This document shows, piece by piece, positions 38,216-62,330 of a DNA stretch of 64,000 nt. The stretch's first letter is position 1; each line of letters starts with the position of its first letter. The notes under the pieces are model-generated. The model made no database searches and had not been told where the DNA came from. It saw only the letters and a program-made list of their open reading frames with translations. The stretch comes from Polaromonas sp. Lineage in GTDB: Bacteria; Pseudomonadota; Gammaproteobacteria; Burkholderiales; Burkholderiaceae_C. Made by a program: the position numbers and the translations under genes. The stretch spans positions 31,359-95,358 of the forward strand of contig JAAFIP010000015.1 in NCBI GenBank assembly GCA_013297865.1. Reading direction: 5' to 3'.

Positions 38216-38234
38216 GCAGACAGTGTAGCAAGTA

Positions 38235-38250
38235 AATCAATCGATTGATT
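38235..38250. promoter_or_regulatory. perfect 16-bp palindrome, candidate TetR operator
   Basis: AATCAATCGATTGATT lies 20 nt upstream of the tetR start codon in an AT-rich spacer. Confidence 0.5.
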
Positions 38251-38270
38251 AGTTTAATTGTAAAGAATTT

Positions 38271-38296
38271 AAAATTTTTGAAACCTCCCGAGGGGG
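38271..38296 (-). terminator. terminator-like hairpin after the mipA-like gene
   Basis: The minus strand reads CCCCC-TCG-GGAGG followed by TTTCAAAAATTTT, 33 nt after the stop at 38329. Confidence 0.45.
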
Positions 38297-38328
38297 CTCG
38301 CGCACCCTACGGGAGTCGGGGTCCATGC

Positions 38329-39252: not shown

Positions 39253-39305
39253 AAAAGTAAGATCGCTATCGTAGAAATGGGCGGATAAAAGTACCTTGGT
39301 ACTCG

Positions 39306-39354
39306 CTTAAACAGGTTTAATGCGAACTTAAGCAAGCTTCGATTACATTTTTAA
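39306..39354 (+). promoter_or_regulatory. phased yTTAA direct repeats in the mipA / response-regulator divergent spacer
   Basis: CTTAA (39306), TTTAA (39316), CTTAA (39327) and TTTAA (39350). The 10-11-nt phasing is typical of OmpR/PhoB-family sites. Confidence 0.3.
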
Positions 39355-39357
39355 GTT

Positions 39358-41449: not shown

Positions 41450-43189
41450 TTACTTCAGAGCACTCCAGGCGGCATAGTCTTTGGGGTAGGCCTCTTTGTA
41501 GCGGGCCAGGTGGGCCATGGCCACATCGTCAAAGTGCAGCATCGTGGCCGACTCGATCAGCGCCTCAATCACCCGCGGCTCGGGCGAATAGTGCACCAGG
41601 TCCAGCGACAGCCGCAGCACATGCACCGCGGTTTGCGGTGTGAGTGGCGTGGTCACCAGCTCGGCAAACTGCGCCTGCCGCCTGAACAGCCAGCTGCGCT
41701 GCGCCGCGGCCATCACATCGCCCTCGTAGCGCGCGCTGCGTTGCTCCACGGGCAGGTAGATCTGGCTCACGCGGTGGTAGTCAAAGGCAGCATAGAGCGT
41801 AAAACACAATAACCCAATTGCTATGCTTTTAATAGCTGCTCCCGCGATATTCCATTGGCCTGCAGCCCTATTTTGTATATAAAAGCCCTTCCCAGAAGGC
41901 GCTGCAGCCGCTGCTGGGGCCAGCAGCAGCCCCAGGCACAGCCCCAGCGTCATCAAAAACGGCCCATACCACAGCGGATACTCCACCATGCTGTGCAGCG
42001 CCAGCAGCGCCAGCACACCCCAGGCCAGCTGGCGTGCAGCGTCTGCCTCGCGCCAGGGCGCAGCGCGCCACACCCACCAGGCCAGCGTGCCACAAAACAG
42101 CAGCGCAAAGGGCAGGCCCAGCTCGACGGCCAGGTGCAGCGGCAGGTTGTGGGCATTGTCCAGCAGGTCCATAAAACGCACGCCCTCCTGCGTGCCAAAG
42201 CTGGTGGCGTAGTGTGCATAGGCCAGCTCCCGCCAGCCCCAGCCCAGCCAGGGCTTTTGCGCAATCAGCTCGATCACATTGCTGTACAGCGCCACCCGCC
42301 CGCTGCCCGTGCTGTCCTGCATGCGCGAGAGCACACCACTGGAGGTGTTACCCACCACATCAGCAAACCAAGGCATCAGCGCCACCGCCACCGCATAGAT
42401 CAGCATGCTGCCCCAGGCCAGACGCTTCACCTGCGCCGACAGGCTGCCGCGCCACAGCCACACCAGCGCCCCGATCAGCAGCCACTGCAACGCCCCCGTG
42501 CGCGAGCTAGACAGCGCATTGCCCAGCGCCAGTGCGCCAGCTGCCAGCCACGGCCAGTAGCCCATCCCTTCGCGCCCCGCAGAGAGCTGCCGCAAATACA
42601 AAAGTGCCAACAGCCCCATGCCACACAGCGTAGCAAACTGATTACGCTGGCGCAGATTCGCATAGGCCGTGCCATCACCCGACACGCTGATCCACGGCGC
42701 AAACCAGTGCTCCACGCGCAAGTATTGGCACAGTGCCATCGCCACACTCACCAGCGCCACTACCAGCCAGGTGCGGGCCAGCCCAGGTAGCGCAACAGCC
42801 TGCCCCATGCTCCACAACTCTACGTCCCGTTGCGTCACATCCTGCCGCATCGGCCCCGCTGCGCCAGCTTGCTCTTGCCCTATACAAAGCCCCACAAACA
42901 GCATCAGCCCCACACTAGCCCAAGCCAGCAAAGTCGCCAGATTCTCCGCCCCCGCCCCCACCGAGCGCCCATGCAGCACAAAAAACAGTGCACACCCTAG
43001 CCCCAACACCATCGCCCCCCGCGGCTGCGCCACTGTACGCTGCCCCACAAGCGCCAGCCAGGCAGCACAGCCCACACACAGCAGCGACACCAACCAAGGC
43101 ACCATCGCCGCCGATGGTCCAGGCGCAAAAGGACTCAGCCAGGGCAGAGCCAGTACAGTAAAAAATAAAGAAGTGCGCAGCGAGGTCAT
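41450..43189 (-). CDS. PglL/PilO-type O-antigen ligase-like O-oligosaccharyltransferase (Wzy_C plus C-terminal Wzy_C_2-like domain)
   Basis: About 12 TM helices, a periplasmic-loop region 'SSRTGALQW', and a C-terminal soluble domain 'YHRVSQIY...LVHYSPEPRVIEALIESA'. It sits next to the pilin genes. Carries repeat copy 9. Confidence 0.8.
   Translation of the reverse strand: MTSLRTSLFFTVLALPWLSPFAPGPSAAMVPWLVSLLCVGCAAWLALVGQRTVAQPRGAMVLGLGCALFFVLHGRSVGAGAENLATLLAWASVGLMLFVGLCIGQEQAGAAGPMRQDVTQRDVELWSMGQAVALPGLARTWLVVALVSVAMALCQYLRVEHWFAPWISVSGDGTAYANLRQRNQFATLCGMGLLALLYLRQLSAGREGMGYWPWLAAGALALGNALSSSRTGALQWLLIGALVWLWRGSLSAQVKRLAWGSMLIYAVAVALMPWFADVVGNTSSGVLSRMQDSTGSGRVALYSNVIELIAQKPWLGWGWRELAYAHYATSFGTQEGVRFMDLLDNAHNLPLHLAVELGLPFALLFCGTLAWWVWRAAPWREADAARQLAWGVLALLALHSMVEYPLWYGPFLMTLGLCLGLLLAPAAAAAPSGKGFYIQNRAAGQWNIAGAAIKSIAIGLLCFTLYAAFDYHRVSQIYLPVEQRSARYEGDVMAAAQRSWLFRRQAQFAELVTTPLTPQTAVHVLRLSLDLVHYSPEPRVIEALIESATMLHFDDVAMAHLARYKEAYPKDYAAWSALK
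41820..41867 (-). repeat. dispersed repeat copy 9 (subfamily A, closest to consensus), inside the PglL-like gene
   Basis: 'GCTATGCTTTTAATAGCTGCTCCCGCGATATTCCATTGGCCTGCAGCC'. Read in the gene's sense it encodes 'AAGQWNIAGAAIKSIA'. Confidence 0.9.
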
Positions 43190-43264: not shown

Positions 43265-44053
43265 TTAGAAACCATCAATTGGGGCATAGGCCAAGGGCAA
43301 AGCGGTTTTAGCGTCAATAAAAGCAACCCAATCTGCAGTTTTAAAGCTTGTTACTGGGATATAGAGCAAACTGCTTTCTGCAACGCCACTATCGATAACT
43401 GTTTGATCAATCAAGCGAGAGGCCTCTGGGCGTTTGGCACGCAAATTTGCAATAGATTTTGCACGACTCAAAACTTGATTTCGACTTAACTCGTAACTTT
43501 GCCACCAGTCTGGTCGTACTGCTTCGTCTTGGCCCTGAAACGCTAGATCCAAACTTTTCGCCCTTTCAAGGGGATCTTTGGCACTACGTACCCCAATTAA
43601 TTTGGGCCCAAATATCGGTAACTTATGGAAGCCGCCTAGTTCAGGTTTAAGTTGCCCCTCTGGAATATCTGCTCTAGACACCACTCTTAAGCGGTCAACT
43701 TCATGGACTAGGTAAACAGGGCGCGCTAAATATACGGTATACAGACCATAAACCAAAGCGGCCATCTGAATAACTGCCACTATGCCCAGATCTCGAATAA
43801 GCTCACCGCGTGGTTTGGCAGGATTAAACAAAACAAATGTAAGCAACGGGCCACACACCACGTCCACCGAGATAATCAGTACAAACAACTCTCTGCCACC
43901 CGATAACTCACGGTAAGGGTAGGGATACCAAACGCCAAATACCAATACACCTGCAAAAAAAGCTACCAGCAAGCTGAGAAAGAGATGCCAAGCTGCAGCT
44001 TTTAAAGAATACTTAAGGCGCGTATTGAATATATTACTGACCAACAACTGCAT
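43265..44053 (-). CDS. TfpX/TfpZ (FimB)-family type IV pilin accessory protein
   Basis: 'VFGVWYPYPYRELSGG...ISVDVVCGPLLTFVLFNPAKPRGEL...ALVYGLYTVYLARP' matches my memory of this membrane protein family, which is encoded downstream of group III-V pilins. GC is low, about 42%. Confidence 0.75.
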   Translation of the reverse strand: MQLLVSNIFNTRLKYSLKAAAWHLFLSLLVAFFAGVLVFGVWYPYPYRELSGGRELFVLIISVDVVCGPLLTFVLFNPAKPRGELIRDLGIVAVIQMAALVYGLYTVYLARPVYLVHEVDRLRVVSRADIPEGQLKPELGGFHKLPIFGPKLIGVRSAKDPLERAKSLDLAFQGQDEAVRPDWWQSYELSRNQVLSRAKSIANLRAKRPEASRLIDQTVIDSGVAESSLLYIPVTSFKTADWVAFIDAKTALPLAYAPIDGF

Positions 44054-44101
44054 ACAAACTAAGACTGGTTTTCAAATTCATAATGTAGTTGTGAGTTTAC
44101 T

Positions 44102-44668
44102 TTAACGGCATTGTGCAGGCACGTACTTAGCTCGTACGGCAGTAGCACCTAATGCTGCAGGAATCACACCTGTACCAGCAAACTGAGCAGTAGCGGTTGC
44201 ATTTGTTTCAGAAACACATGCAAAGTCTATATCACCTGAAACTTGTGTTGCAGGTGTCAATGCAGTTAGCAGCGTCACAGCAGTTCCTGTTCCAGTGCGA
44301 ACGATCGGATGAATTTGAATCAGGCGCTCACCTGCTTTAATACCAACGCTAACGTCGTTGTACTGAATTGTCATGATACCGGTTGTAGTAGAACCTTGGA
44401 TGTTGTTAACGAACTTGCTGGTTGCACCAGTACCACCAGATTGGTTGTTAAAAGTTGTCATGGCTCCTGCCAAATCGGCAGCGGTAACCGCGCCGTAAGT
44501 AACTATGCCCTTCTTCAAAGGCTCAACCAAGCTCAAACCCTCAGTGATACGTGCGCGGATGGTGTAGTCTTGGTACGCGGGCAATGCAATAGCAGCCAAT
44601 ATACCAATAATCGCTACAACTATCATCAGTTCGATCAGGGTAAAGCCCTTTTGCAATAAACGTTTCAT
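44102..44668 (-). CDS. pilA: type IVa major pilin, paralog 2
   Basis: Class III signal '[35 protein letters not shown]' and a C-terminal Cys pair (disulfide loop). About 92% aa identity to paralog 1. Confidence 0.9.
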
Positions 44669-44688
44669 AATTAGCTCCAAGCAGTCAT

Positions 44689-44714
44689 TAAAAAAAAGAG
44701 CGCCTAAGCGCTCT
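44689..44714 (-). terminator. rho-independent terminator between the two pilin genes
   Basis: The minus strand reads AGAGCGC-TTAG-GCGCTCT followed by T8. It starts 26 nt after the paralog 1 stop. Confidence 0.8.
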
Positions 44715-44739
44715 TTTCAAGTAGAAACTATATTAGAGA

Positions 44740-45306
44740 TTAGCGGCATTGTGCAGGTACGTACTTGGCACGCACGGCAGTAGCGCCTAATGCTGCAGGG
44801 ATTACACCTGTACCAGCAAACTGAGCCGTAGCTGTAGCATTGGTTTCAGATACACATGCAAAGTCCACAGTACCCGATACTTGTGTTGCAGGTGTCAATG
44901 CAGTCTGCAAGGTCACAGCAGTACCTGTACCAGTGCGGACAATCGGATGAATTTGAATCAGGCGCTCAGCGGCTTTGATACCTACATTACCGTCGTTATA
45001 CTGAATCACCATAATACCGGTAGTAGTAGAACCTTGAATGTTGTTAACGAACTTGCTGGTTGCACCAGTACCACCAGATTGGTTGTTAAATGTTGTCATG
45101 GTTCCTGCCAAATCGGCAGCGGTAGAAGCGCCGTCCGTAGCTAAGGATTTCTTCAGAGGCTCAACCAAGCTCAAACCTTCAGTGATACGTGCACGGATGG
45201 TGTAGTCTTGATAAGCTGGCAGAGCAATAGCAGCCAAAATACCGATAATCGCCACAACGATCATCAATTCGATCAGGGTGAAACCCTTTTGCAGAGTACG
45301 CTTCAT
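44740..45306 (-). CDS. pilA: type IVa major pilin, paralog 1 (promoter-proximal)
   Basis: '[35 protein letters not shown]'; 188 aa; SD 'ctggaga'; sigma-54 promoter immediately upstream. Confidence 0.9.
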
Positions 45307-45344: not shown

Positions 45345-45361
45345 TTGCAAGTGGTGTGCCA
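45345..45361 (-). promoter_or_regulatory. sigma-54 (-24/-12) promoter of pilA paralog 1
   Basis: The minus strand reads TGGCAC-ACCAC-TTGCA, an exact match to the TGGCAC-N5-TTGCW consensus and spacing, 39 nt upstream of the ATG. Confidence 0.85.
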
Positions 45362-45554
45362 GGGGCCTTGAATGCTATTTATGCGTGAAATGTCACAATA
45401 TAGATACTTTAGAACTAACTTTCAGAGCCAATTTTGTGTCACACGCCATCTGCACTGACAATTATGTTACTTGTGCGGACAAAATACGTAACAAAATTCG
45501 TGAAATGTGACCAGATGATGGTTTCCGTCTTGGCACGCAGCCGCTGGCCCGACG

Positions 45555-47987
45555 TTACTTCAGGCACACCGCTCGCACCTGTTTAAGGTCGGTCAGGCCC
45601 ATCAGAATCTTTTCCATGCCGTCCATCTTGAGGGTGCGCATGCCTTGGGCTACGGCCAGAGTGAATAGTTCGGCCACGCGGGCGCTCTCCTGGATGAGTT
45701 TTTTGATGGCGTCGTCGGCCACCAGCAGCTCGTGCAGGCCCACGCGACCTTTGTAGCCGGTGTGCTTACATTTGTCGCAGCCGCCCTGGCTGTTGACGCG
45801 GTAGAGCTTGAGGCTGCCGTCTTTGCCGTAGGCTTCGCTCCAGTGGTCCAGCAGGAGCTGCTGTTCGCCCCCGGGGTCGGCCTGCCAGGCAGCGGTGTGG
45901 CGCAGCTCGTCGGCATATTCGGTGATAAAGCTCTTGAGCTCGGTCGAAGTGGGCGTGTACTCTTCTTTGCAGTCGCACAGGCGCTTGGCCAGGCGTTGCG
46001 CCAGGATGCCCAGCAGCGCATCGGCAAAGTTGAACGGGTCCATGCCCATGTCCAGCAGCCGGGTGATGGACTCGGGCGCGCTGTTGGTGTGCAAGGTGCT
46101 GAACACCAGGTGGCCGGTGAGCGAGGCTTCCACACCCATGCTCACGGTTTCCTTGTCGCGGCTCTCGCCCACCATGATGATGTCGGGGTCGGCGCGCAGA
46201 AAGGCGCGCATGATCAGGGCAAAGTCAATACCGGCTTTTTTGTTGACCTGGACCTGACGCAGGCCCTTTTGGGTGATCTCCACCGGGTCTTCGGCCGTCC
46301 AGATCTTGGTGTCGGGCGTGTTGAGAAACTTGAGGATGCTATGCAATGTGGTGGTTTTGCCCGAACCGGTAGGGCCGCACACATAAAACAGGCCGTAGGG
46401 TTTGCTGACGGTTTTTTCCACACGCTCACGGTTGTGGGTGGTGAGGCCCAGTTTTTCCAGCGGGATAGGCTCGCCTGCGGCCAAAATGCGCATGACCACG
46501 TCTTCCACGCCGCCTGCGCTGGGGATGGTGGCCACGCGCAGCTCGATGTCCAGCGGGCCGTATTTTTTGAACTTGATCTTGCCGTCCTGCGGCTTGCGCC
46601 GCTCGGAGATGTCCAGGTCGCACATGATTTTCAGGCGAGTGACCATGGCCTGGCGAAAATGCGAAGGCACCTCGATATACGGTGCCAGCGTGCCGTCAAC
46701 GCGAAAGCGGATGCCGGTTTTGGCCTTGCCGGGCATGGGCTCGATGTGGATGTCCGAGGCCTTCTGGTGGTAGGCGTCCACAATGACCTTGTTGACAAAC
46801 TTTACCAGCTCGTTGTCGGCCGCGGCTGACTCGAGAGCCGAATCGTCAAAGCCAGAGTCGTCCAGCGGCGCGTTCATGTCGGCCAGTAGCTGGTCGATAG
46901 AGCCGCTGTCGTTGCCTGCGCCAAACAGCTGGCCCAGGGTTTCTTCAAACTCCGCATGGGTGGTGACGCGGTAGCTGACTTTGGACAGGCGCGGGAACAG
47001 CTGCTGCACCATGCGCGCGCCGCGCGTGGCCTCAGGGTCCAGGCACATCACCACCAGGCCTTCGGAGGTTTCTTCCAGCGGGATCCAGCCTTGCTGGTGG
47101 ATGAAGTCCACCTTCAGCGCAGCGTGCAGCATCTCCGAGCGGATGCGCCCGTTGCTAAATGGCTCATACGGCACACCAAAAAACTGCGCAAGCGACGGGC
47201 CGATCTGCGCGGGCTTGATGTGGTGGTCGGCCATCAGCATATGCTCCACCGACTGGCCCTGCTCGCGAGCCTTGCGCACACACTGCGCCAGCGCTTCGGC
47301 AGACAGCATCTCCTGGCTCACCAGCAAATCGTATTTGGTGGCTTTGCGCCGCTGGCTGTCTTCGGCGCGCTGCGCGCGCTGGCGGATGGCGGTGGCCAGG
47401 GTTTTGCACAGCTGGGTGGCGCCTTCAATCTCCAGCATACCAAATGGCGCATTGCTTTTGTTGTTGATCACCTGCAGCACACCATGCAGCTGCTGGCCGT
47501 CCACAATCGGCACCACCAGCATCTGCTTGGTGCGGTAGCCCGAGCGCTTGTCCACCTCTTTGAGAAAACTCAGCTGGGGATGGATGCGCTTGAGGCTCTC
47601 GTCGTCATACACATCGGCAATATTGACCATATCGCGCGACATGGCGGCATAGCCCGCAATGCTCTGCACGCCAATGGGCAGCTTGAGGTCTTTGGCCACC
47701 TGCAGGCCGGTTTTGACCTTGGAGATGATCGAGCTTTTGTCTTCGCTTACAGCGTACAGCGTGAGCCGGTCTGCATTGAGCAGCTTGCAGATGTCCTGGC
47801 TGGACTCCAGCATCAGCTGGTCAATGTTCTCGGTGTCGTGGATGCGGGTGGTGACCTGCTGTAGCTGGCGGTAAAACAGTACCTCAAAGGTGACGCCGCG
47901 TTTTTCAGGGGGCAGCAGCTGGGAGTTGAAAAACGCCTGTTCAGCGCTGGCATGCGCATGGCTCGACGGCGAAAACCCGGAGCTCAT
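45555..47987 (-). CDS. GAF domain-fused PilB/GspE-family (T2SSE) hexameric ATPase
   Basis: - 810 aa in total.
- N-terminal GAF-like region (about aa 40-200).
- T2SSE_N-like region (about aa 220-360).
- ATPase core: Walker A 'GPTGSGKTT', Asp box 'TAEDPVEI', Walker B 'DIIMVGESRD', His box 'GHLVFSTLHTN'.
- Zinc motif 'CDC...CDKC'. Confidence 0.9.
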   Translation of the reverse strand: MSSGFSPSSHAHASAEQAFFNSQLLPPEKRGVTFEVLFYRQLQQVTTRIHDTENIDQLMLESSQDICKLLNADRLTLYAVSEDKSSIISKVKTGLQVAKDLKLPIGVQSIAGYAAMSRDMVNIADVYDDESLKRIHPQLSFLKEVDKRSGYRTKQMLVVPIVDGQQLHGVLQVINNKSNAPFGMLEIEGATQLCKTLATAIRQRAQRAEDSQRRKATKYDLLVSQEMLSAEALAQCVRKAREQGQSVEHMLMADHHIKPAQIGPSLAQFFGVPYEPFSNGRIRSEMLHAALKVDFIHQQGWIPLEETSEGLVVMCLDPEATRGARMVQQLFPRLSKVSYRVTTHAEFEETLGQLFGAGNDSGSIDQLLADMNAPLDDSGFDDSALESAAADNELVKFVNKVIVDAYHQKASDIHIEPMPGKAKTGIRFRVDGTLAPYIEVPSHFRQAMVTRLKIMCDLDISERRKPQDGKIKFKKYGPLDIELRVATIPSAGGVEDVVMRILAAGEPIPLEKLGLTTHNRERVEKTVSKPYGLFYVCGPTGSGKTTTLHSILKFLNTPDTKIWTAEDPVEITQKGLRQVQVNKKAGIDFALIMRAFLRADPDIIMVGESRDKETVSMGVEASLTGHLVFSTLHTNSAPESITRLLDMGMDPFNFADALLGILAQRLAKRLCDCKEEYTPTSTELKSFITEYADELRHTAAWQADPGGEQQLLLDHWSEAYGKDGSLKLYRVNSQGGCDKCKHTGYKGRVGLHELLVADDAIKKLIQESARVAELFTLAVAQGMRTLKMDGMEKILMGLTDLKQVRAVCLK

Positions 47988-48775
47988 AGGTCAAATACTT
48001 GCCCCGCCCGCAGCCAGCGGATGTCATGGCTCACATGGGGGCCAGAGGGATGGGTCTGGTCAAAGCGTTGCACCTCTTCCATGATCAGGTCGGTCTCAGC
48101 TGGCTTGGTATGGGTGATGTAAATCGGAAAGTGCTTGTCCTGGGCGATCTGGTCCAGCTCGTCTGCCAGTGCGGTGGGCGAGAGGTGCAGGCTGCGTTTG
48201 GCCAGCTCCTGCTCACGGTTGCTGAAAGCGGTTTCTATCACTAGCATCGCCACGTTCATGGAGTTCAGACGCTGCCAGAAGGCGGCGTTGCGCTCGGTAT
48301 CGCCAGTAAACACCCAGCTGCTTCGGCCTGCATGCACCGCGTAGCCCACCGCAGGCACGGTGTGCACTGCTGGCATCACCTCGACGGTTTTGCCTGCGAT
48401 TTGCAGGATTTGGCCGGTATGGATCGGGTGAAAACTCAAAAACGGCGCTTCGGCCGACGGAATTTGGCTGAAGTCGGGCCAGATGGCGTTATTGAAAATA
48501 TGCTGGCGCAGGGCGGCAATCGTCTCGGGCAGGGCATGCACGCGCAAAGGCGCGCTGCGCTGGGCTGCGACCGAGTCGATCATCAGCGGCAACGAGGCGA
48601 TATGGTCCAGATGCGAATGGGTCAGCAGCACATCGTTGATCTGGCACATCTCATCCAGACGGAGGTCGCCCACGCCCGTGCCTGCGTCCACCAGCAGGTC
48701 GGCATCAATCAGGAAGGAGGTGGTACGGCAGTCCTTGGCAATCGCGCCAGAGCATCCTAAAACCCGTACTTTCAT
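47984..48775 (-). CDS. class II 3',5'-cyclic-nucleotide phosphodiesterase (MBL fold)
   Basis: 'MKVRVLGCSG' and 'LLTHSHLDHIASLPL' match the start of the class II PDE signature H-x-H-L-D-H-[LIVM]-x-[GS]. The stop overlaps the ATPase start (ATGA). The start is at 48775, or possibly 48802. Confidence 0.8.
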   Translation of the reverse strand: MKVRVLGCSGAIAKDCRTTSFLIDADLLVDAGTGVGDLRLDEMCQINDVLLTHSHLDHIASLPLMIDSVAAQRSAPLRVHALPETIAALRQHIFNNAIWPDFSQIPSAEAPFLSFHPIHTGQILQIAGKTVEVMPAVHTVPAVGYAVHAGRSSWVFTGDTERNAAFWQRLNSMNVAMLVIETAFSNREQELAKRSLHLSPTALADELDQIAQDKHFPIYITHTKPAETDLIMEEVQRFDQTHPSGPHVSHDIRWLRAGQVFDL

Positions 48776-48812
48776 TGTGCAAAATTCCCCAAAGACATAC
48801 ATCGCCTATGCA

Positions 48813-51062
48813 TTATTTAGTATCAAAATTGGTTGCGCCGTCCCACGCGGGATCAATAGGCAACATACGCATAGAGGCTACACGCTCTGAGTACAGTTGG
48901 TAAAGGTATTTTTTGGCATTTACGCGCTGCAAATTAAGTATTTGTACATCGCATTGCTCCCAGTCCTGGTTTCTGTAGGCCTTAAGTAAGCCATTCCAGA
49001 TTTTCAGCTCGTCGGCCTGATCTTTGCCCAGATGGTCAGCGCTGGCCACGGGCATGAAGATGGAAACGGCCTGTTCCTTGCCCTTGACGCGCACTTTGTC
49101 CAGCTCCTGCCAGGCAAAATCAGGCGCCAGCCTGCGGGTGGACTCACTCACCACAATCTCCACGCCATAGTTTTTGGACAGTCCTTCCAGCCGCGAGCCC
49201 AGGTTGACGGCGTCGCCAATGACGGTATAGCTTTTGCGGATCGACGAGCCCATGTCGCCTACGCACATATTGCCCGTGTTCAGGCCAATGCCGATGCCGA
49301 TGGCGGGCAAGCCCTTGGCCTCGTGCTCGGCATTGAGGGTGCGCACGGCCTGCGCCATCTCGATGGCGGTTTTTACCGCCAGCGAGGCGTGCTGTGGCGA
49401 GTCCACTGGCGCGCCCCAAAACGCCATCACGCAGTCGCCCATGTATTTGTCGATGGTGCCCCGATTGGCGCGGATCAGGTCGGTCAGGCGGCTGAAGACA
49501 GTGTTCAGCAGGGCCTGCAGCTGGGTGGGCTCCATGTTCTCAGACAGCTTGGTAAAGCCGCGCATGTCACAGAACATGACGGTCAGCTCCTTGCTGGCGG
49601 CCTTCATGTTGTAACTGTCGGGGTCTTTGACCATTTCATCGACCAGCTCGGGCGGCACATAGGTGCCAAACAGGTTGGCGATCTGGCGCTTGGATTTGCT
49701 CTCGACAAAATAGCCGTAACTCATGTTGAGCGCAAAGGCCGTCAGCGACATGATCAACGCCGCAGCCAGGGGCAACACCAGACCATAGCCCAGGTACATC
49801 CAGAAATTCAGGCCCACTACTGCGCCGATTACCAGCAAGCTCAGCGCGACAGCCTTGGGCGCAGACAGCATCGGCAGCGCAATGGCCAGAATCAGGCCGG
49901 CGAGCACCAGCACCACCACCTCAAAACCAATGGCGTAATCAGGCCGCACAGGCACACGGCCATCAAGCAGGCCAGAGATCATGTTGGCATGCACCTCTAC
50001 CCCCGGGTAGGTCTCGCCCACGGGGGTGACGCGCAGGTCCAGCAGGCCGGGGGCTGTGGTGCCCAGCAGCACGATCCGGTCTTTGAGCGCACCCGCAGGC
50101 ACCCGCTGCATCACCACATCCGAGGCAGAGTAGTATTTGAAGGAGCCGCCAGTCGTGTTGCCCGGGCCCCGAAACGGGATCAAAGCGGAGACTTTGTCAT
50201 CCACCGGAATGGCCAGGCTCTTGCCGTCCTGGCGCAGCAAAATGCTCTCCAGTCCCTGGTAATTGCGTGCCAGAAAGCGCTCTTGTGGAAAGCCCGGCTC
50301 GATTTTGGGCAAACCGGTGAGCATGCGGAAAATGCCCAGCGACAGAGATTCGTAATACTGCCCCTTGTGCTCCGCCACCAGCGGGATGGATCGCACCACA
50401 CCGTCGAGGTCAGTAATGGAGTTGAAAAACCCGGCCATGGGCGCTGCTTTGGCCAGGGACTCAATATTGGAGCCAAAGCCCGACCAACTGGTGAATTTGA
50501 TGGGCTTGCCTTGCAATGCGTCACGCTGCATCACGGGGGCAGGCAGCGCGCCGCTGGTGCGGCCATCGCGGTCACTGGTGAAGTAGTAGCCCATCACTAC
50601 GGCGCGTTTATCTAGAGACTTGGCAAATGCGGCGTCGTAGTCCAGGCTGTTTTCAATCTGTCCCAGACGCTCGGCAAACCCGGCCTGGTCCTTGAGCTCG
50701 TTGCTGGCCAGCTGGCGCAGGCGCTTGAGACCCGAGCTCTCGTCGGCTTCCGCAAACACCACGTCAAAACCCAAAATGGCGATTTTCTGGCGCTCGAACA
50801 GCTCATCCACCAGGGTGGCCATTTTGTTGCGGCCCCAGGGCCAGCGGCCGACTTCGGCCAGGCTTTTCTCGTCAATGTCGATGATCGCAATGCGCTCATC
50901 CAGGGTCTTGGGCATGGTCGCGCTCAGGCGCGAGTCGTAGATGATGTCATCCAGACGCTGGAAGACATTGATGGGCAACATGCCGCTGGCGTGCAGCAAG
51001 GCAATGACTAGGGGGATAAGTGTGACGGCGATGCGGCGCCAATGTTTCAGCAGCACCTGCAT
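48813..51062 (-). CDS. CHASE2 sensor-linked class III adenylate/guanylate cyclase
   Basis: N-terminal CHASE2 region ('IAIIDIDEKSLAEVGRWPWGR'), then 3-4 TM helices, then the cyclase domain 'VMFCDMRGFT...DKYMGDCVMAFWGAP...GDAVNLGSRLE' with both metal Asp residues and the Asn/Arg pair present. Confidence 0.9.
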   Translation of the reverse strand: MQVLLKHWRRIAVTLIPLVIALLHASGMLPINVFQRLDDIIYDSRLSATMPKTLDERIAIIDIDEKSLAEVGRWPWGRNKMATLVDELFERQKIAILGFDVVFAEADESSGLKRLRQLASNELKDQAGFAERLGQIENSLDYDAAFAKSLDKRAVVMGYYFTSDRDGRTSGALPAPVMQRDALQGKPIKFTSWSGFGSNIESLAKAAPMAGFFNSITDLDGVVRSIPLVAEHKGQYYESLSLGIFRMLTGLPKIEPGFPQERFLARNYQGLESILLRQDGKSLAIPVDDKVSALIPFRGPGNTTGGSFKYYSASDVVMQRVPAGALKDRIVLLGTTAPGLLDLRVTPVGETYPGVEVHANMISGLLDGRVPVRPDYAIGFEVVVLVLAGLILAIALPMLSAPKAVALSLLVIGAVVGLNFWMYLGYGLVLPLAAALIMSLTAFALNMSYGYFVESKSKRQIANLFGTYVPPELVDEMVKDPDSYNMKAASKELTVMFCDMRGFTKLSENMEPTQLQALLNTVFSRLTDLIRANRGTIDKYMGDCVMAFWGAPVDSPQHASLAVKTAIEMAQAVRTLNAEHEAKGLPAIGIGIGLNTGNMCVGDMGSSIRKSYTVIGDAVNLGSRLEGLSKNYGVEIVVSESTRRLAPDFAWQELDKVRVKGKEQAVSIFMPVASADHLGKDQADELKIWNGLLKAYRNQDWEQCDVQILNLQRVNAKKYLYQLYSERVASMRMLPIDPAWDGATNFDTK

Positions 51063-51156
51063 ACCGTCTCCTATGGTGCAATGGGGTCGTGATGGGGCTC
51101 AGGCAGACAGGTCAATCCAGCGGCCTTGGCATCAAGGCGACGCAGAGGGGCCCGCC

Positions 51157-51798
51157 TCAGCCTTGGACAAACTGCATCTGAGTGCCAGCAAGCTCGAGAA
51201 CATCCATGTCTTTAAGTGTGACAGGCTCCGCGCCAATAGGCGCACCGTTGAGCGTGGGCTTGTTGGAGCCTTCCACATGGGCCACCACAAAGCCATGGGG
51301 GCGCTTGGTAATGGCAGCAACGGCCACACCGGGCTTGCCAATCGTAGTGACTACCTTGACCAGAGGCACTTCGCGGCCGGCAGCGGCACCTGAGAGCACC
51401 TTGATGGCCGCATTGACCGAAGGCGCAGCAGCAGCACTGGCCGCAGGCGGCATGGCGACACCGGCAGAACCGGGTTTGACGACCATCGTCTGCTCAAAAC
51501 TCGCATTGGCCGCTTCGTTGACAAATTTGATCTTATATTTGCCGATTTCAACAGTATCGTTGTTTGCCAACAACTGTTTTTTGGCAGCTTTGCCGTTGAC
51601 ATAGGTGCCATTGGTGCTGTTGAGGTCTTCCAGGTACACCTCATTGCCCGTCATCTGCATGACGGCGTGCTCGCCACTGACGGCCAGATTGTCGATGACA
51701 ATGTCGTTGTAAGGACGCCGTCCCAGGGTGGTACGGTCCTTCGTTAGCTGGACTTCCTTGATGACGACACCGTCGATCGATACGATCATTTTCGGCAT
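51157..51798 (-). CDS. FHA domain protein (N-terminal FHA plus second beta-rich domain)
   Basis: 'TTLGRRPYNDIVIDNLAVSGEHAVM...LNSTNGTYVNG' carries the FHA signature residues G-R, S-x-x-H and N-G; 213 aa. Confidence 0.85.
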   Translation of the reverse strand: MPKMIVSIDGVVIKEVQLTKDRTTLGRRPYNDIVIDNLAVSGEHAVMQMTGNEVYLEDLNSTNGTYVNGKAAKKQLLANNDTVEIGKYKIKFVNEAANASFEQTMVVKPGSAGVAMPPAASAAAAPSVNAAIKVLSGAAAGREVPLVKVVTTIGKPGVAVAAITKRPHGFVVAHVEGSNKPTLNGAPIGAEPVTLKDMDVLELAGTQMQFVQG

Positions 51799-51832
51799 GG
51801 CCGACTCCTGTTGATATAGCTATACATTTATT

Positions 51833-52618
51833 CTACTTTCTCAGTAAGCGCGACATCAAGCCACGCTTGTTTGAGCCTTCTTTGGCCTGCATCAGCAGCA
51901 CCGTAATATTATCCCTGCCACCAGCCTCATTGGCCGCTGCAATCAAGGTATTGCACTTTTGCTCCAGCGTCTCATCGTTACGCAAGATCTGTGCAATGCC
52001 GTCGTCGTCCACCATGTCAGACAGGCCATCAGAACACATCAAGTACAGATCGCCAACCTCCACGCGGTGCTCATTGACTTCCAGCAACACCGTGTCTTCC
52101 ACGCCCAGTGCGCGGGTGACCAGGTTTTTGTTCAGCGATGTAGCAGCCTGCTCAGGAGTGATTAAGCCTGCATCAAGCTGTTCCTGCAAGAGCGAATGGT
52201 CCCTGGTGATCTGGCTGAACTCCTCGCCACGCAGGCGATAGCAGCGCGAATCGCCAATATGGCCGAGCATCAGGCGTGCTTCGTGGCACACCCCCACCAC
52301 CAGCGTGGTGCCCATGCCGGCGTACTGCGGATTGGAGTTGGCAGCATTGAAGATCGAACGATTGGCGTTGTCCACGCAGATTTCCAGCGCGCGGCGCACT
52401 TCGCGGGCATTGGCGGTTTTGCCCACCTGCGACAGCCAGCGGCTGAGTTCGGAGCGGATAAACGCGGTGGCCATGCCACTGGCGACTTCGCCAGCGTTAT
52501 AGCCGCCCATGCCATCGGCTAGGACGGCCAGCTGGGTGGGTGCATCAAAAGTGACCGAATCCTCGTTGTTGTCTCGCGCGAGTCCGGGGTCGGTATGGGT
52601 ACAAAATTGGTAAATCAT
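51833..52618 (-). CDS. PP2C-family Ser/Thr protein phosphatase
   Basis: 'RDNNEDS', 'LADGMGG', 'CSDGLSD' and 'GGRDNITVLL' are PPM motifs; 261 aa. Confidence 0.9.
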   Translation of the reverse strand: MIYQFCTHTDPGLARDNNEDSVTFDAPTQLAVLADGMGGYNAGEVASGMATAFIRSELSRWLSQVGKTANAREVRRALEICVDNANRSIFNAANSNPQYAGMGTTLVVGVCHEARLMLGHIGDSRCYRLRGEEFSQITRDHSLLQEQLDAGLITPEQAATSLNKNLVTRALGVEDTVLLEVNEHRVEVGDLYLMCSDGLSDMVDDDGIAQILRNDETLEQKCNTLIAAANEAGGRDNITVLLMQAKEGSNKRGLMSRLLRK

Positions 52619-52647
52619 GGTATAGCCGGGGCCTACTATAACGAGTT

Positions 52648-55386
52648 TTAGCTATGAGTCCCCGAATTGGGAGGGGGCGCGACTATGGTTTTCTCGAACT
52701 TTGAAGGCTCAGGCGTGAATTTTTGCGTTGCAGCAAAACCATCTGGACTGGTTTTGGACACTGCTGGCGCGCTCATGATACGGGTGGGCTCTTCTGCGTC
52801 TGCGCTGGCGACAACAGGACGCGGGCTGGCTACTGTCTGGGGCTGGGTATCGCCCACACCCATCTCGGCGATGGCCAGGCGCAGATCGCTGGCCAGTTGC
52901 TCGCCATCCTGGTAGCGCGTCTCAGGGCGTTTGCTCAGTGCGCGCATCACCACATGGGCTACTCGCTCGCTCAGGTCGGCTCGGATGGCGCGTACATCGG
53001 GGGCTTCTTCGTTGGCGATTTTGTACATCAGCTCAGCCATTGAGTCACCACGGAACGGCAGCACGCCAGCAAGCATCTGGAAAAGCATCACGCCCAGGGA
53101 ATACAGGTCTGAGCGCCCGTCGACTTTTTTGCCCGCAATCTGCTCGGGTGACATGAAGCTGGGGGTGCCCAGCACCAGACCGGTTTTGGTTTTGCTGGAG
53201 TCGGTAATGCGTGCAATGCCAAAGTCGGTCACCTTGACCGTGTCGCTGTCCAGCTCATACATGATGTTGGCAGGCTTGATGTCACGGTGCACCACATTCT
53301 GGCGGTGTGCATAAGCCAGCGCCTGCGCCACGCGCTCCACAATCGACAGCACCTTGGCCACCGGCAGCAAACTGCCTTGTTTGCAGAAATCCACCAGGTC
53401 TTTGCCTTTGAGAAACTCCATGGCGATGTAGGCCAGATCATGCTCTTCGCCCGCATCAAAAATCGTCACGATGTTCTGGTGCTGCAGGCGCCCTGCGGTT
53501 TCTGCCTCGCGGAAGAAGCGCTCACGCGCATCAATCAGCTCATCCCCATCGAACTCCTGCGACAAGGCCATGGTCTTGATAGCCACAACGCGGCCAATCT
53601 TGGGGTCCTTGCCCAGATAGACCACCCCCATCGCGCCCTTGCCCAGTTCTTTTTCGACCTGGTAACGGCCCAGCATGGGTTTCTCCACGCCGCCGCCGTC
53701 CAGTAGCATGGTGCCGCCAGGGTGCGCGCCTGTGCCACCGAGGATGACGGTTTCCGAGAGGTTTTTGGCACGGCTGAGTTTGGCATCCAGCCCTTTGTAG
53801 CTGCGGTCCAGCCCGGCCATGTGCTCATACACCGCCTGGGCCTTGTTGAACTGGCGCTTGCGCTCAAAATCCAGCGCCAGATTGCCCAGGTTACCCATCA
53901 GGGCGTCACTCACCGGCACGCGGCGAAAACGGTCAAATGCCATGTCCAGCTGGCCTTGGCCCTGCAACGCCAGGCCCATCATGCGGTTGGTCTCGGCAGA
54001 CTCCTCATCGCTTTTAACTTTGCCTGCTTCGGTGAACAGGAAACGTTTGGTGGTCAGCGCCAGGTGGCCGATCACCAGCAGCATGGCGGGAAACACCAGC
54101 TTGAGCCACTTGCTGTTTTGCGAGAGCAGCACATATTCAGCGATCAAAAACAGCGCGAACACTGCGCCCGTCATGACCGCGCCCTGGCCTGCAGACAGGC
54201 GCGGCAGCAGCACAATCAGATAGGCCATGGTCAACAGCACGGCCAGACCGGAGGTGATGTAAGCCCATGAGGGCGTGCTGACGAAGTGCTCAGACAGAAT
54301 GCCCGAGGTGACATGGGCCGTGAGCTCTACCGGGGTCATGGAGCGGCCCAGCGGCGTGGGAAACTCCACACCCAAACCTGCTGCGGTAGGGCCGAGCAGC
54401 ACGATTTTGTTGGCGTATTTGCTGGCTTGTACTTTGCCAGACAGCACATCAAAGGCAGAGTCGGTGGCAAATGCGGTCTTGCCATCGCGGTCGGCGTAGA
54501 AGAAGGGGCGCATCAAGGCCGCGCCGCCTTCGTCAGTACCAATGCGCAGCTTGCCCAGCTGAATTTCAAACGGATTGTCGTTCACACGGATGTCAGCCGG
54601 GCCCAGATTGAGACTGCGGGCTGCCGCCAAAAGCGCTATCGAGGGAACAAGCTGGCCGTAGTAGTTGGTAAGCAAAGGCTCGCTGCGTATCGCGCCGTCA
54701 ATATCTGCCACCTTGCTGGCATGCCCGATGCCAATGGCCTTGCTGCCCAAAATCTCCAGCGGCTCCAAAATACCGGCCGCCTCTACGCCCAGCAGTGTGG
54801 CAGGCGCGGCAACCAGGCTTTTGGTGGTGCCCGGGCTCAGGGGTTTGTCTGGCTTGCCACGGGCTTCACCCGGCGTGAAAGACGCCGCCAGAATGACCTT
54901 GTTGGATGCCGCAATCGACTGCGCCAGTTTGGCGTCACTGTTGAGTGCTTCTTCACCCTCGGTGGCGATCTTGTTGACCGCCTCCAGCGTGGAGTTGCTG
55001 GCCGAGGGGTCGATGGCCAGCGCCTCGCGGATCTTGCGCAGATAGGGCAAGCCGCGCTCCATCTGCGGCTCAAAATAGAACACGGTGTTGACGATGGACT
55101 TGGGTGCGCCGGAGTTGATTTTGTCGATCAGCTGGGCCTGCACATCGCGCGACCAGGGCCAGCGACCGATATTGGCAATGCTTTGGTCATCAATGGCGAT
55201 GATGGCGATCTGGTCAGAAGGCTTTTTGTTGGCCGCGCTGAGGGATACGTCGTAGAAGCGGTTTTCAAACGTATCTACAAAGTTGGTACTTTTGTAGAGC
55301 AGCAGTACGCCAAGCACCACCAGGACGCCCACAAACCAGTCGGAGCGCCAGAATTGGCTACGTTTTGAAGAAGATCCTGTCCCCAC
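52648..55386 (-). CDS. CHASE2 sensor-linked Hanks-type Ser/Thr protein kinase
   Basis: - N-terminal CHASE2 region ('IAIIAIDDQSIANIGRWPWSR').
- TM cluster followed by a helical linker.
- Kinase domain with 'GKGAMGVVY', 'VAIKTM', 'HRDIKPANI', 'DFGIA' and 'GTPSFMSPE'.
- Pro/Ser-rich tail.
- 912 aa in total. Confidence 0.9.
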   Translation of the reverse strand: MGTGSSSKRSQFWRSDWFVGVLVVLGVLLLYKSTNFVDTFENRFYDVSLSAANKKPSDQIAIIAIDDQSIANIGRWPWSRDVQAQLIDKINSGAPKSIVNTVFYFEPQMERGLPYLRKIREALAIDPSASNSTLEAVNKIATEGEEALNSDAKLAQSIAASNKVILAASFTPGEARGKPDKPLSPGTTKSLVAAPATLLGVEAAGILEPLEILGSKAIGIGHASKVADIDGAIRSEPLLTNYYGQLVPSIALLAAARSLNLGPADIRVNDNPFEIQLGKLRIGTDEGGAALMRPFFYADRDGKTAFATDSAFDVLSGKVQASKYANKIVLLGPTAAGLGVEFPTPLGRSMTPVELTAHVTSGILSEHFVSTPSWAYITSGLAVLLTMAYLIVLLPRLSAGQGAVMTGAVFALFLIAEYVLLSQNSKWLKLVFPAMLLVIGHLALTTKRFLFTEAGKVKSDEESAETNRMMGLALQGQGQLDMAFDRFRRVPVSDALMGNLGNLALDFERKRQFNKAQAVYEHMAGLDRSYKGLDAKLSRAKNLSETVILGGTGAHPGGTMLLDGGGVEKPMLGRYQVEKELGKGAMGVVYLGKDPKIGRVVAIKTMALSQEFDGDELIDARERFFREAETAGRLQHQNIVTIFDAGEEHDLAYIAMEFLKGKDLVDFCKQGSLLPVAKVLSIVERVAQALAYAHRQNVVHRDIKPANIMYELDSDTVKVTDFGIARITDSSKTKTGLVLGTPSFMSPEQIAGKKVDGRSDLYSLGVMLFQMLAGVLPFRGDSMAELMYKIANEEAPDVRAIRADLSERVAHVVMRALSKRPETRYQDGEQLASDLRLAIAEMGVGDTQPQTVASPRPVVASADAEEPTRIMSAPAVSKTSPDGFAATQKFTPEPSKFEKTIVAPPPNSGTHS

Positions 55387-55567
55387 GGCCCGCCCCTTTG
55401 CGAGATGTCAACGCGCAGTCTCAAGTTGCGGCGCCAAGTTATTACTGCTGGCGAAATTTTTACCAGGCCCCAACATTACCAGAGCGGATATGCCCAGACA
55501 AGGGAGTTTGTCACAAAACGCCTGTTTTCTGTTGCAAATAGGCGCCACCGAGCCGGCCGCACAAAGC

Positions 55568-55593
55568 ATCAGGGCCTGCGAACGGGCCCTGAT
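55568..55593 (-). terminator. stem-loop after the TerC-family gene (weak T tract)
   Basis: ATCAGGGCC-loop-GGCCCTGAT (9-bp stem), 23 nt after the stop at 55616. Confidence 0.35.
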
Positions 55594-55615
55594 AGCAGGG
55601 TACAAACAGTTCAGT

Positions 55616-56311
55616 TTAAGCGGCGGCTTGGCTGCGCTTTTGCATCCACAGGCCCAGGCTGACGACAATGGCAGCGCCCACCACGCCAGCGAACAGGATG
55701 GTCTGCTCACCCATCTTGCCGAACCAGCCCACAAAAGCCGGGTCGGTCAGCAGCATTTCGCCGGCCAGGAAGCCCAGCAGCGCAGCACCCAAGGTGATGA
55801 TGATGGGGAAACGTTCCATGATTTTCATCAGCAGGGTGGAGCCAAAAATGATCAGGGGAATGCTGACCAGCAGACCCAGCACGAGCAAGGCCGTGCTGCC
55901 CTTGGCCGCAGCAGCGACGGCGAGCACGTTGTCCAGGCTCATCACCAGGTCAGCAATCAGGATGGTGCGGATCGCAGCGCCCAGACCGTTGATTTCCTTG
56001 CCGTGGCTGTCATCGTCACCGCCACCGCTGAGCAAATCTACGCCAATATAGACCAGCAGCACTGCACCGATGATCTTCAAATAGGGCAGTGCGAGCAGTT
56101 GAACAGCGACCACTGTCAAAATAATACGCATCACAATGGCGGCAGCGCTGCCCCAGAAGATGGCTTTATTTTGGTGCTCGGGCTTGAGGGACCGGGCAGC
56201 CATCGCAATGACTACGGCGTTGTCGCCCGATAAAACGATGTTGGCCAGCATGATGGAGCCCAAAGCGCTCCACATCGCAGCAGATGAAATATCGAGTCCG
56301 AAAAACACCAT
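55616..56311 (-). CDS. TerC/YjbE-family integral membrane protein
   Basis: 'NIVLSGDNAVVIAMAAR' and 'IADLVMSLDNVLAVAAAA' are duplicated TerC motifs. The ATG at 56311 has the RBS 'aagga'. Confidence 0.85.
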   Translation of the reverse strand: MVFFGLDISSAAMWSALGSIMLANIVLSGDNAVVIAMAARSLKPEHQNKAIFWGSAAAIVMRIILTVVAVQLLALPYLKIIGAVLLVYIGVDLLSGGGDDDSHGKEINGLGAAIRTILIADLVMSLDNVLAVAAAAKGSTALLVLGLLVSIPLIIFGSTLLMKIMERFPIIITLGAALLGFLAGEMLLTDPAFVGWFGKMGEQTILFAGVVGAAIVVSLGLWMQKRSQAAA

Positions 56312-62198: not shown

Positions 62199-62330
62199 GG
62201 AACAAAGTTGTACCACTAAAGTGAGCATGCTTGCAACAGCGCAAGTGACCAAGCGGGTCAAATTTGCGATGCAAAGCCAAAGTTTTGCGTGGTTTTGGGC
62301 TGCTGTGGGGACCAGGACAGATTTTTAAAT

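Follow-up and report, generated by a model that had tools for sequence, protein, structure and literature searches.

The stretch of DNA analysed here (hereafter the window; 64 kb from Polaromonas sp., contig JAAFIP010000015.1 of assembly GCA_013297865.1) contains a compact block of six genes at 45555-55386, all on the minus strand, which ends directly upstream of type IVa pilin genes. In the order of reading, the block encodes a membrane Ser/Thr kinase with a CHASE2 sensor, a PP2C-type phosphatase, a small FHA protein, a class III nucleotidyl cyclase with a second CHASE2 sensor, a class II-type cyclic nucleotide monophosphate (cNMP) phosphodiesterase (PDE) and a PilB-like ATPase with an N-terminal GAF domain (Table 1). 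The genes for TerC, sucD and sucC, recognized by Pfam, lie upstream of the kinase gene on the same strand. The six co-directional open reading frames (ORFs) and their identities had been proposed in an earlier reading of the DNA made without database searches (hereafter the sequence-only reading) and were confirmed by the ORF list, Pfam and NCBIfam. The intact catalytic motifs claimed there for every enzyme were also recovered: catalytic or binding motifs were complete in all six proteins, both in the translations and in the alignments to solved structures.

Table 1. Features of the six-gene unit and of the adjoining pilin genes (window coordinates; aa, amino acids; TM, transmembrane; MBL, metallo-beta-lactamase).
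Feature	Position	Strand	Properties
TerC-kinase intergenic region	55387-55615	-	229 nt; hairpin and presumed promoter of the six-gene unit
CHASE2 Ser/Thr kinase	52648-55386	-	912 aa, GTG start; Pfam CHASE2 3.7e-48 and Pkinase 3.9e-55
PP2C-type Ser/Thr phosphatase	51833-52618	-	261 aa; Pfam PP2C_2 2e-13
FHA protein	51157-51798	-	213 aa; Pfam FHA 4.6e-22
CHASE2 class III nucleotidyl cyclase	48813-51062	-	749 aa; Pfam CHASE2 5.6e-54 and Guanylate_cyc 5.6e-27 (94.9 bits)
Class II-type cNMP phosphodiesterase	47984-48775	-	263 aa; MBL fold; Pfam Lactamase_B_2 and PDEase_II 1.1e-13
GAF-MshEN-PilB-like ATPase	45555-47987	-	810 aa; Pfam GAF 3.6e-11, MshEN 2.5e-07, T2SSE 7.1e-112
GAF domain of the ATPase	47373-47867	-	~aa 41-205
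MshEN-like helical bundle and alpha/beta domain of the ATPase	46917-47345	-	~aa 215-357
N2D+CTD core of the ATPase	45558-46805	-	aa 395-810
Net insertion of ~32 residues in the ATPase	45798-45932	-	segment aa 686-730, between two Cys pairs
21-nt direct repeat, two copies	45381-45401 and 45496-45516	-	core CGTGAAATGT[C/G]AC
Sigma-54 -24/-12 element TGGCACaccacTTGCA	45346-45361	-	upstream of pilA; 193 nt past the ATPase stop
pilA1, type IVa major pilin	44740-45306	-	188 aa; Pfam N_methyl and Pilin
pilA2, second pilin	44102-44668	-	93% identical to pilA1
TfpX/TfpZ-family pilin accessory protein	43265-44053	-	NCBIfam NF041437, 215 bits against a cut-off of 200
PglL/Wzy_C-type O-oligosaccharyltransferase	41450-43189	-	Pfam PglL_A, Wzy_C, Wzy_C_2

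The spacers inside the block, recomputed from the coordinates, measured 29, 34, 94 and 37 nt, and the PDE and ATPase genes overlapped by 4 nt (ATGA at 47984-47987), in agreement with the earlier values. The mechanical call extends the PDE ORF to an ATG at 48802 and the 37-nt spacer requires a start at 48775; the latter is supported by the length of the orthologues, which is 263 aa. Upstream of the unit, the TerC gene stops at 55616-55618 and is followed at approximately 55568-55593 by a terminator-like hairpin (ATCAGGGCC-N8-GGCCCTGAT, then GCTTTGTG). A scan for sigma-70 promoters gave counts at chance level and did not locate the promoter of the unit. The promoter/terminator scan as a whole, being at chance level, was uninformative on operon structure, and the terminator scan showed no convincing terminator inside the six-gene unit. 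The gaps are short in all related loci as well, and an operon-like organization of the six genes, in line with the proposed single transcription unit, is supported by their layout.

The matches listed for the ATPase included many full-length GAF-containing orthologues with 78-89% identity, originating from Polaromonas, Variovorax, Ramlibacter, Rhizobacter and Burkholderiaceae. The gene order of both Polaromonas sp. JS666 and Variovorax terrae was sucC-sucD-TerC-kinase-PP2C-FHA-cyclase-PDE-ATPase, followed by pilin genes. A genome scan with a 5-sequence alignment and one genome per species produced at least 580 tblastn-confirmed stretches with a relative of the GAF-MshEN N-terminus. The window proteins were mapped onto the best 80 of these loci, all of which belonged to Comamonadaceae, and more distant neighbourhoods were sampled singly. 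In 62 loci, the region could be seen in full from sucD to the ATPase. The synteny of ATPase orthologues with the signalling genes, on which the sequence-only reading depended, was evident there: all five upstream genes accompanied the ATPase between sucCD-TerC and pilA in 52 loci, only the PP2C and FHA genes did so in five (e.g., Curvibacter and Hylemonella), the kinase alone was missing in three, and cyclase and PDE were missing in two (Rhodoferax). The PP2C, FHA and ATPase genes constituted an invariant core (62/62), the cyclase and PDE genes were never found singly and were gained or lost jointly, and the kinase is a third, separable module.

The spacing of the genes was conserved together with their order. 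The median gaps in the related loci were 11, 43.5, 57.5, 15 and -4 nt, and the overlap of the PDE stop with the ATPase start (ATGA or GTGA) was present in 70 of 71 loci. Among the 49 loci with enough downstream sequence, 47 had a pilin gene downstream of the ATPase, in 32 cases at a distance of up to 1 kb. Genus after genus, the locus occupied the same place in the core genome (sucCD-TerC...pilA) with 65-90% identity and was not a variable island. Because this gene order recurs in dozens of species, the arrangement is not a product of chance. Environmental Comamonadaceae commonly carry the module, examples being Polaromonas, Rhodoferax, Ramlibacter, Variovorax, Curvibacter and Acidovorax.

Outside this group, a profile search with the N-terminal 390 residues of the ATPase yielded 194 clusters (50% identity) at E <= 1e-30, among which were many full-length GAF-MshEN-T2SSE proteins with 26-48% identity. 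The gene of a 48%-identical relative, located in an unrelated context (RdgC and LTXXQ genes), was preceded at a distance of 5 nt by a class II-type PDE gene, and its locus contained no kinase, FHA or cyclase gene. Since the pair persists in this relative and in another context, the link between the PDE and the GAF-ATPase is older than the six-gene cluster, and the full cluster represents a Comamonadaceae elaboration at the pilA locus. A still more distant GAF-MshEN-T2SSE ATPase (locus L085, 7494-8351; ~30% identity in the N-terminus and ~56% in the core) adjoins two PilZ genes, which hints that some members of the family receive a cyclic di-GMP (c-di-GMP) input through separate PilZ proteins.

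The GAF domain of the ATPase had its best solved relative in the cAMP-binding tandem GAFs of Anabaena CyaB2 (1YKD, 1.1e-25), followed by a GAF-HD-GYP protein, PDE10A (2ZMF, 1.4e-7), PDE2A (1MC0, 1.8e-6), PDE6 and PDE5, while the GAF of PtsP was far behind (0.038). The domain contains the conserved blocks (S/T)GY(R/K)T...P and NK...F...E, and a variant NK...F...D was seen in the GAFs of several distant family members. An AlphaFold2 (AF2) model of residues 1-395 (pLDDT 72.8) comprised, in this order, a GAF fold, a helical bundle and an alpha/beta domain. A Foldseek search with this model returned GAF folds of all kinds, including the cAMP-bound Lcd1 GAF (5W10), PtsP and phytochromes. Judged by its closest relatives and its fold, the domain is probably a cNMP-type GAF with a predicted ligand of this class. 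The c-di-GMP motif of the MshEN domain (two tandem 24-residue RLGxx(L)(V/I)xxG(I/F)(L/V)xxxxLxxxLxxQ) was absent from the window ATPase and from 12 relatives, and in the same set a relaxed pattern, [RK]xGxx[LIVM][LIVM]xxG, was also without a match. The Pfam MshEN match was limited to aa 270-357, i.e., the alpha/beta half, and the similarity to solved GSPII/MshEN domains was marginal and not significant.

The catalytic core of the ATPase aligned with PilF, PilB and GspE at 1e-90 to 1e-101 and scored 374 bits with T2SSE (PF00437; cut-off 24.9). The Walker A (GPTGSGKT), Asp box, Walker B with the catalytic Glu, and His box motifs are all present and align with PilF (5OIU), and the motor motifs were about 86% conserved. 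The four cysteines of the Zn site are retained as C671-x-C673 ... C737-xx-C740, with CxC instead of CxxC in the first pair and a stretch between the pairs that exceeds that of distant relatives by about 20 residues.

The best solved matches of the cyclase were adenylate cyclases, including P. aeruginosa CyaB (3R5G, 5.3e-32). The protein consists of the CHASE2 sensor (aa 20-391), TM helices and a catalytic domain (aa 490-666), in which FCDMRGFT, IDKYMGD and YTVIGDAVNLGSRLE align residue for residue with CyaB. The two metal-binding Asp, the Lys/Thr substrate pair and the Asn/Arg transition-state pair are present. A class IIIb adenylate-cyclase-like enzyme is thereby supported, with cAMP as the expected product because the Lys/Thr and Asn/Arg pairs are shared with adenylate cyclases. 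The neighbouring PDE carries the metal-binding signature HSHLDH (HxHLDH; THSHLDHIASLP) and exceeds the cut-off of Pfam PDEase_II (PF02112; 51.4 bits against 23.7) with a match that covers only profile positions 82-175 of 340. Its best solved match was the yeast class II PDE1 (4OJV, 4.6e-9), and its orthologues carry precomputed Apyc1-family matches. It is best described as a class II-type cyclic-nucleotide phosphodiesterase with a predicted substrate.

The Apyc1-family matches, together with PADLOC matches to PycC for the cyclase domain (1e-30) and to PD-T4-6 for the kinase domain, raised the question of a Pycsar-like anti-phage or receptor-masking module. The pilus is a common phage receptor, and in such a module a cyclic nucleotide formed on infection would shut the pilus, the PDE being the counterpart of Apyc1. 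However, the PADLOC matches amount to generic domain homology, the FHA protein and the PDE had none, and an effector of the Pycsar kind (a TM or TIR domain joined to one that binds cNMP) is missing. In the cyclase, the adenylate Lys/Thr pair is combined with a periplasmic CHASE2 sensor, and the locus lies at a fixed core-genome position rather than in a variable island. On the basis of the generic matches, the missing effector and the core-genome position this explanation was rejected, and what probability remains to it is minimal.

The kinase is composed of an N-terminal TM segment, a periplasmic CHASE2 domain (aa 25-384), three TM helices, a linker, a Hanks-type domain (aa 575-826) and a Pro/Ala-rich tail. 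Its translation contains the GxGxxG, VAIK, HRDIKPxN, DFG and GTPxxMSPE motifs. Orthologues with 62-70% identity were present in 54 of the 62 loci. The CHASE2 domains of the kinase and the cyclase are colinear and 28% identical. The phosphatase scored above the NCBIfam cut-off for Stp1/IreP PP2C (255.2 against 230) and contains the RxxNED, DGMGG, GDSR, DGLSD and DN motifs.

The FHA protein has a canonical FHA domain (aa 1-95), a variable Ala/Pro linker and a conserved all-beta C-terminal domain (aa 130-213). The phosphothreonine-binding residues Arg27, Ser41, His44 and Asn63 were invariant in 69 of 69 sequences. In the otherwise variable linker, Thr104 (codon 51487-51489), with a hydrophobic residue at +3, was found in 67 of the 69. 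It was absent only from two Curvibacter loci (L042 and L065), in which this segment is lost and which are also without kinase, cyclase and PDE. The joint absence of Thr104 and the kinase is only suggestive of a co-loss, and may go back to a single event. The C-terminal domain gave Pfam matches to Yop-YscD_cpl (E 0.002) and FHA (E 0.08), and the two domains of the protein matched each other in hhalign at E 0.058; the AF2 model of the protein was poor (pLDDT 54.8). These values weakly suggest a degenerate second FHA-like beta-domain. The best NCBIfam match of the FHA domain was OdhI (2.6e-17; 62.9, below the cut-off of 200), and the protein was also below the cut-off of TagH/Fha (TIGR03354; 40.9 against 120.25). 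A Hanks-type kinase, a PP2C phosphatase and an FHA protein are thus encoded together, as in the PpkA/PppA/Fha1 checkpoint of type VI secretion, and no type VI secretion system (T6SS) genes were found in the window regions scanned.

Taken together, the unit is interpreted, with slightly better than even confidence, as encoding a cAMP-gated, phospho-threonine/FHA-controlled auxiliary PilB-like ATPase of type IV pili directly upstream of the major pilin genes, with the ligand, the phospho-target, the contact between the FHA protein and the ATPase and the effect on pili all being predicted. According to this model, the two periplasmic CHASE2 sensors would answer an envelope or extracellular cue, upon which the cyclase would form cAMP and the Hanks-type kinase phosphothreonine. 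The cAMP would bind to the N-terminal GAF of the ATPase, placed ahead of an MshEN domain devoid of the c-di-GMP motif, so that cAMP would be read by the GAF at the position used for c-di-GMP in related motors. If CyaB1/2, PDE2/5/10 and Lcd1 are a guide, the ligand might relieve an autoinhibition and switch the hexameric motor on, and the PDE, translationally coupled to the ATPase, would hold the local cAMP low and reset the switch. In parallel, the kinase/PP2C pair would set the phosphorylation of a threonine, for which Thr104 of the FHA protein is the best candidate. The FHA protein would read this mark, would probably carry it too, and could act as an adaptor licensing or recruiting the ATPase, either similarly to PpkA/PppA/Fha1 or as a self-binding switch of the GarA/OdhI type. 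The output would be pili made of the downstream sigma-54-driven PilA, built with the canonical type IVa platform and alignment proteins. The most specific version of this proposal, namely a pilus extension motor gated directly by cAMP through a GAF that has taken over the sensing from MshEN, with threonine phosphorylation and FHA as a second key and both inputs arriving via CHASE2 sensors, is put forward tentatively, as a possibility rather than a probability.

The observations weighing against this interpretation concern the cohesion of the unit, the ligand of the GAF domain and the identity of the motor. With respect to cohesion, the kinase is absent from 8 of the 62 loci, the cyclase and PDE are absent from 7 of the 62 lineages, and an internal promoter might be located in the 94-nt gap ahead of the cyclase gene. 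Separable modules, such a gap and an uninformative promoter/terminator scan would also fit six genes that are mere neighbours, i.e., independent units with unrelated functions. This is nevertheless very improbable, considering the same order and strand in 52 of 62 loci from many genera, the median gaps of -4 to 58 nt, a PP2C-FHA-ATPase set that is never separated, and the functional match within the writer/eraser/reader and the kinase/phosphatase/reader sets.

The separability did modify two proposals of the sequence-only reading. Its writer/eraser/reader circuit of cyclase, PDE and GAF stood as far as the matched enzymes and the coupling are concerned, but it was not self-contained, as the seven lineages without cyclase and PDE keep the GAF. 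A decay of the GAF expected in those lineages was ruled out by its identity to the window GAF, which is equally high there (0.74 vs 0.76). Because the domain is undecayed without the two enzymes, the local cyclase cannot be the sole source of the ligand, if the ligand is cAMP. Of the superimposed kinase/phosphatase/FHA layer, the PP2C and FHA parts were found in all loci, but the kinase, missing in eight, is not a constant partner; the kinase-less lineages keep an intact FHA protein and PP2C, and a substitute kinase may operate there.

With respect to the ligand, the fold search was unable to separate cNMP-binding from other GAFs, the NKFDE motif of the window GAF is only approximate (N-K-x4-F-x3-E-I-E), and the GAF-ATPases with ~30% identity in the GAF-MshEN N-terminus were orphans without signalling neighbours. 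The signalling genes might then be directed at pilin expression or at other targets, for example through a CRP/Vfr-type regulator, and the GAF might bind cGMP or a metabolite or be merely structural. Such an explanation would fit the undiminished conservation of the GAF where the local cyclase and PDE are absent, the PtsP and phytochrome GAFs among the fold matches, a weak NCBIfam match to the PtsP GAF, and the fact that cAMP is known to control type IV pili at the level of transcription (PMC11656802; bioRxiv 10.64898/2026.09.03.749161). It was considered rather unlikely, since the best solved relatives of the GAF are all cNMP-binding (1e-25 vs 0.038 for PtsP) and a scan of the neighbours revealed no CRP-type gene. 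Action on expression alone is, moreover, at odds with the start-stop overlap of the PDE and ATPase genes in 70 of 71 loci and with the retention of the PDE-ATPase pair alone in the distant relative.

With respect to the motor, the best NCBIfam model was PilB (TIGR02538) with 468.5, below its cut-off of 675.65, and GspE (TIGR02533) followed with 435.1 against 630.25. In the window regions scanned there was no pilC, pilD, pilM or pilN, so that the ATPase might serve another fibre or none. The PilB-like ATPase of the sequence-only reading was therefore retained for its T2SSE match and motifs, but not as a typical PilB, in view of the sub-threshold scores, the lack of a pilC or pilM neighbour and the absent c-di-GMP motif: the protein is a divergent paralogue, PilB-like in its architecture and, as judged from sequence, neither a canonical PilB nor a GspE. 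A second T2SSE ATPase was not found within +/-10 kb in the 80 loci, nor in the window. In the related Ramlibacter tataouinensis, which has one type IV pilus machinery, this ATPase is one of three PilB paralogues, and Rta_37350 is listed as 'sensor GAF domain; PilB' in the supplementary table of the same work (PMC3164672), while Verminephrobacter, another member of Comamonadaceae, needs the canonical pilBC for piliation (PMC4212676). Because of these PilB paralogues and this pilBC requirement, an auxiliary role beside a canonical PilB seems more likely.

The same precedents, the near-equal sub-threshold scores with PilB and GspE, the insertion at the Zn-site region with CxC for CxxC, and the failure to find a gene for a platform protein nearby could also mean that the GAF-ATPase is not a pilus-extension motor at all, but belongs to a secretion or DNA-uptake pseudopilus or is a regulatory or sensor paralogue, all pilus assembly being done by a canonical PilB encoded elsewhere. 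This appears unlikely: in 47 of 49 loci the ATPase is followed by a type IVa pilin gene (32 of them within 1 kb), its surroundings contain neither gsp nor com genes, all of its motor motifs are intact and well conserved, and the two PilZ genes next to the distant family member encode a known kind of PilB cofactor. The model of a cAMP-gated and FHA-controlled auxiliary pilus ATPase is preferred because none of the other explanations accounts as well for a cNMP-type GAF in combination with the coupling of PDE and ATPase.

The unit had been said to end 248 nt upstream of the sigma-54 pilin promoter; 248 nt is the distance from the ATPase stop (45555) to the ATG of pilA (45306), and the sigma-54 element itself lies 193 nt after the stop. 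The perfect sigma-54 site reported ahead of pilA proved correct: no sequence other than TGGCACaccacTTGCA matches TGGCAC-N5-TTGCW exactly in the 64 kb, where matches with one mismatch were not above chance. The two direct repeats, 115 nt apart and just upstream of this site, are candidate sites for an enhancer-binding protein of the PilR type; the scanned parts of the window contained neither pilR nor pilS. Only pilA, tfpZ and pglL adjoin the ATPase gene, and no other gene of the pilus machine is present in the window. The PglL/Wzy_C-type protein is likely a pilin glycosylase. The pilA1, pilA2 and tfpZ genes (43265-45306) have a third-position GC content (GC3) of about 0.40 compared with 0.7-0.8 in all flanking genes, the GC of the window falls to 0.487 at 44-46 kb, and a hairpin with a T8 terminator lies between pilA1 and pilA2. 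With this composition and its 93%-identical tandem pilin copies, the cassette looks like a horizontally exchanged and recently duplicated one. In several Polaromonas loci, e.g., that of JS666 (L001, 12434-19098), three large opposite-strand genes for TPR and GT41-family glycosyltransferase proteins are located between the GAF-ATPase and the pilin gene, and the pilin-modification cargo at the locus varies among species.

In the remaining part of the window, the region 31628-41423 adjoining the pilin glycosylation gene contains a TetR-regulated RND efflux operon (TetR, outer-membrane factor, membrane-fusion protein and AcrB), a MipA gene and an OmpR-type two-component pair, none of which is pilus-related. 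Two adjacent minus-strand ORFs at 5503-8355 and 8454-9905 (950 and 483 aa; GC3 0.73-0.77) had no Pfam match at E <= 1e-5. The ORFs at 60561-62261, 18642-19730 and 22489-23718 (566, 362 and 409 aa) were also without a Pfam match, and a low GC3 was noted for the last of them (0.53) and for its neighbour at 23732-24607 (0.60).

Several characterized systems share individual properties with the proposed one. MshE of V. cholerae, PilB of M. xanthus and Chloracidobacterium, PilF of T. thermophilus and PilB2 of C. perfringens are hexameric motors of the PilB/GspE family in which an N-terminal extension senses a nucleotide second messenger, as is predicted here. The window ATPase has the same MshEN (GSPII)-N2D-CTD backbone and the same ATPase motifs as the c-di-GMP-gated MshE, PilB and PilF. 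In contrast to these motors, it lacks the two RLGxxLLxxG...Q motifs, has a cNMP-type GAF fused in front and the additional insertion in the Zn region, and is accompanied in its unit by dedicated cyclase and PDE genes. The closest GAF sequences and the GAF fold are those of Anabaena CyaB1/CyaB2, mammalian PDE2/5/6/10/11 and Leptospira Lcd1, whose logic, a cyclic nucleotide activating a fused output domain, is predicted to be shared. The output here is a secretion-type ATPase instead of a cyclase, a PDE or a diguanylate cyclase, and, unlike in the tandem GAFs of CyaB and the PDEs, there is a single GAF with an approximate NKFDE motif and predicted ligand binding. A class IIIb membrane cyclase tied to type IV pili is also known from the Pil-Chp/CyaB/Vfr system of P. 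aeruginosa (5e-32 between the catalytic domain and CyaB). There, however, cAMP acts via Vfr (PMC11656802), while the predicted receptor here is the motor itself; the sensor is CHASE2 instead of MASE2, and the PDE is class II-type instead of CpdA.

The phosphorylation branch resembles the PpkA/PppA/Fha1 control of the P. aeruginosa H1 T6SS: in both, an ATPase-driven envelope machine is encoded with an FHA scaffold, a PP2C phosphatase and a Hanks-type membrane kinase whose sensor is periplasmic, and the FHA protein here, like Fha1, has outside its FHA domain a Thr that is a candidate phospho-acceptor. The branch differs from this control in the absence of T6SS genes, in the short FHA protein scoring below the TagH/Fha cut-off, in a CHASE2 instead of a vWA sensor, in a PilB-like motor instead of ClpV and in a kinase that is dispensable in some lineages, and the likeness to the T6SS checkpoint is one of logic only. 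The actinobacterial GarA/OdhI are likewise small FHA proteins whose conserved phospho-acceptor Thr is not part of the FHA domain, and Thr104 is the candidate for it here. In contrast to GarA/OdhI, this Thr lies C-terminal to the FHA domain, a second beta-domain is present, and the gene belongs to a pilus locus and not to central metabolism.

How pilus extension ATPases are controlled post-translationally is under active study, and the known inputs are c-di-GMP (via MshEN or PilZ/FimX) and polarity factors. No study of the six-gene module was found in full-text literature searches, the only trace being the annotation of Rta_37350. A review of PilB regulation from 2024 has no mention of GAF or FHA and treats cAMP as a transcriptional signal only (PMC11656802), and in a 2026 preprint on Pil-Chp cAMP acts via expression and machine abundance (bioRxiv 10.64898/2026.09.03.749161). 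Every component comes from a known family, and both control principles, a second messenger acting at the N-terminus of a motor and a kinase/PP2C/FHA checkpoint of an envelope machine, are known separately; their combined wiring is apparently uncharacterized.

If the model is true, it would represent a new post-translational two-input control of pilus assembly, widespread in Comamonadaceae, and would provide a genetic handle on what CHASE2 domains sense. A motor with its own cNMP-type GAF, cyclase and coupled PDE would add a direct cAMP input and a domain substitution at the sensing position, and the invariant PP2C-FHA partnership extends the idea of a kinase/phosphatase/FHA checkpoint from type VI secretion to type IV filaments. 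Since natural variants without the kinase or without the cyclase and PDE exist, the hypothesis can be addressed by comparative physiology and simple biochemistry.

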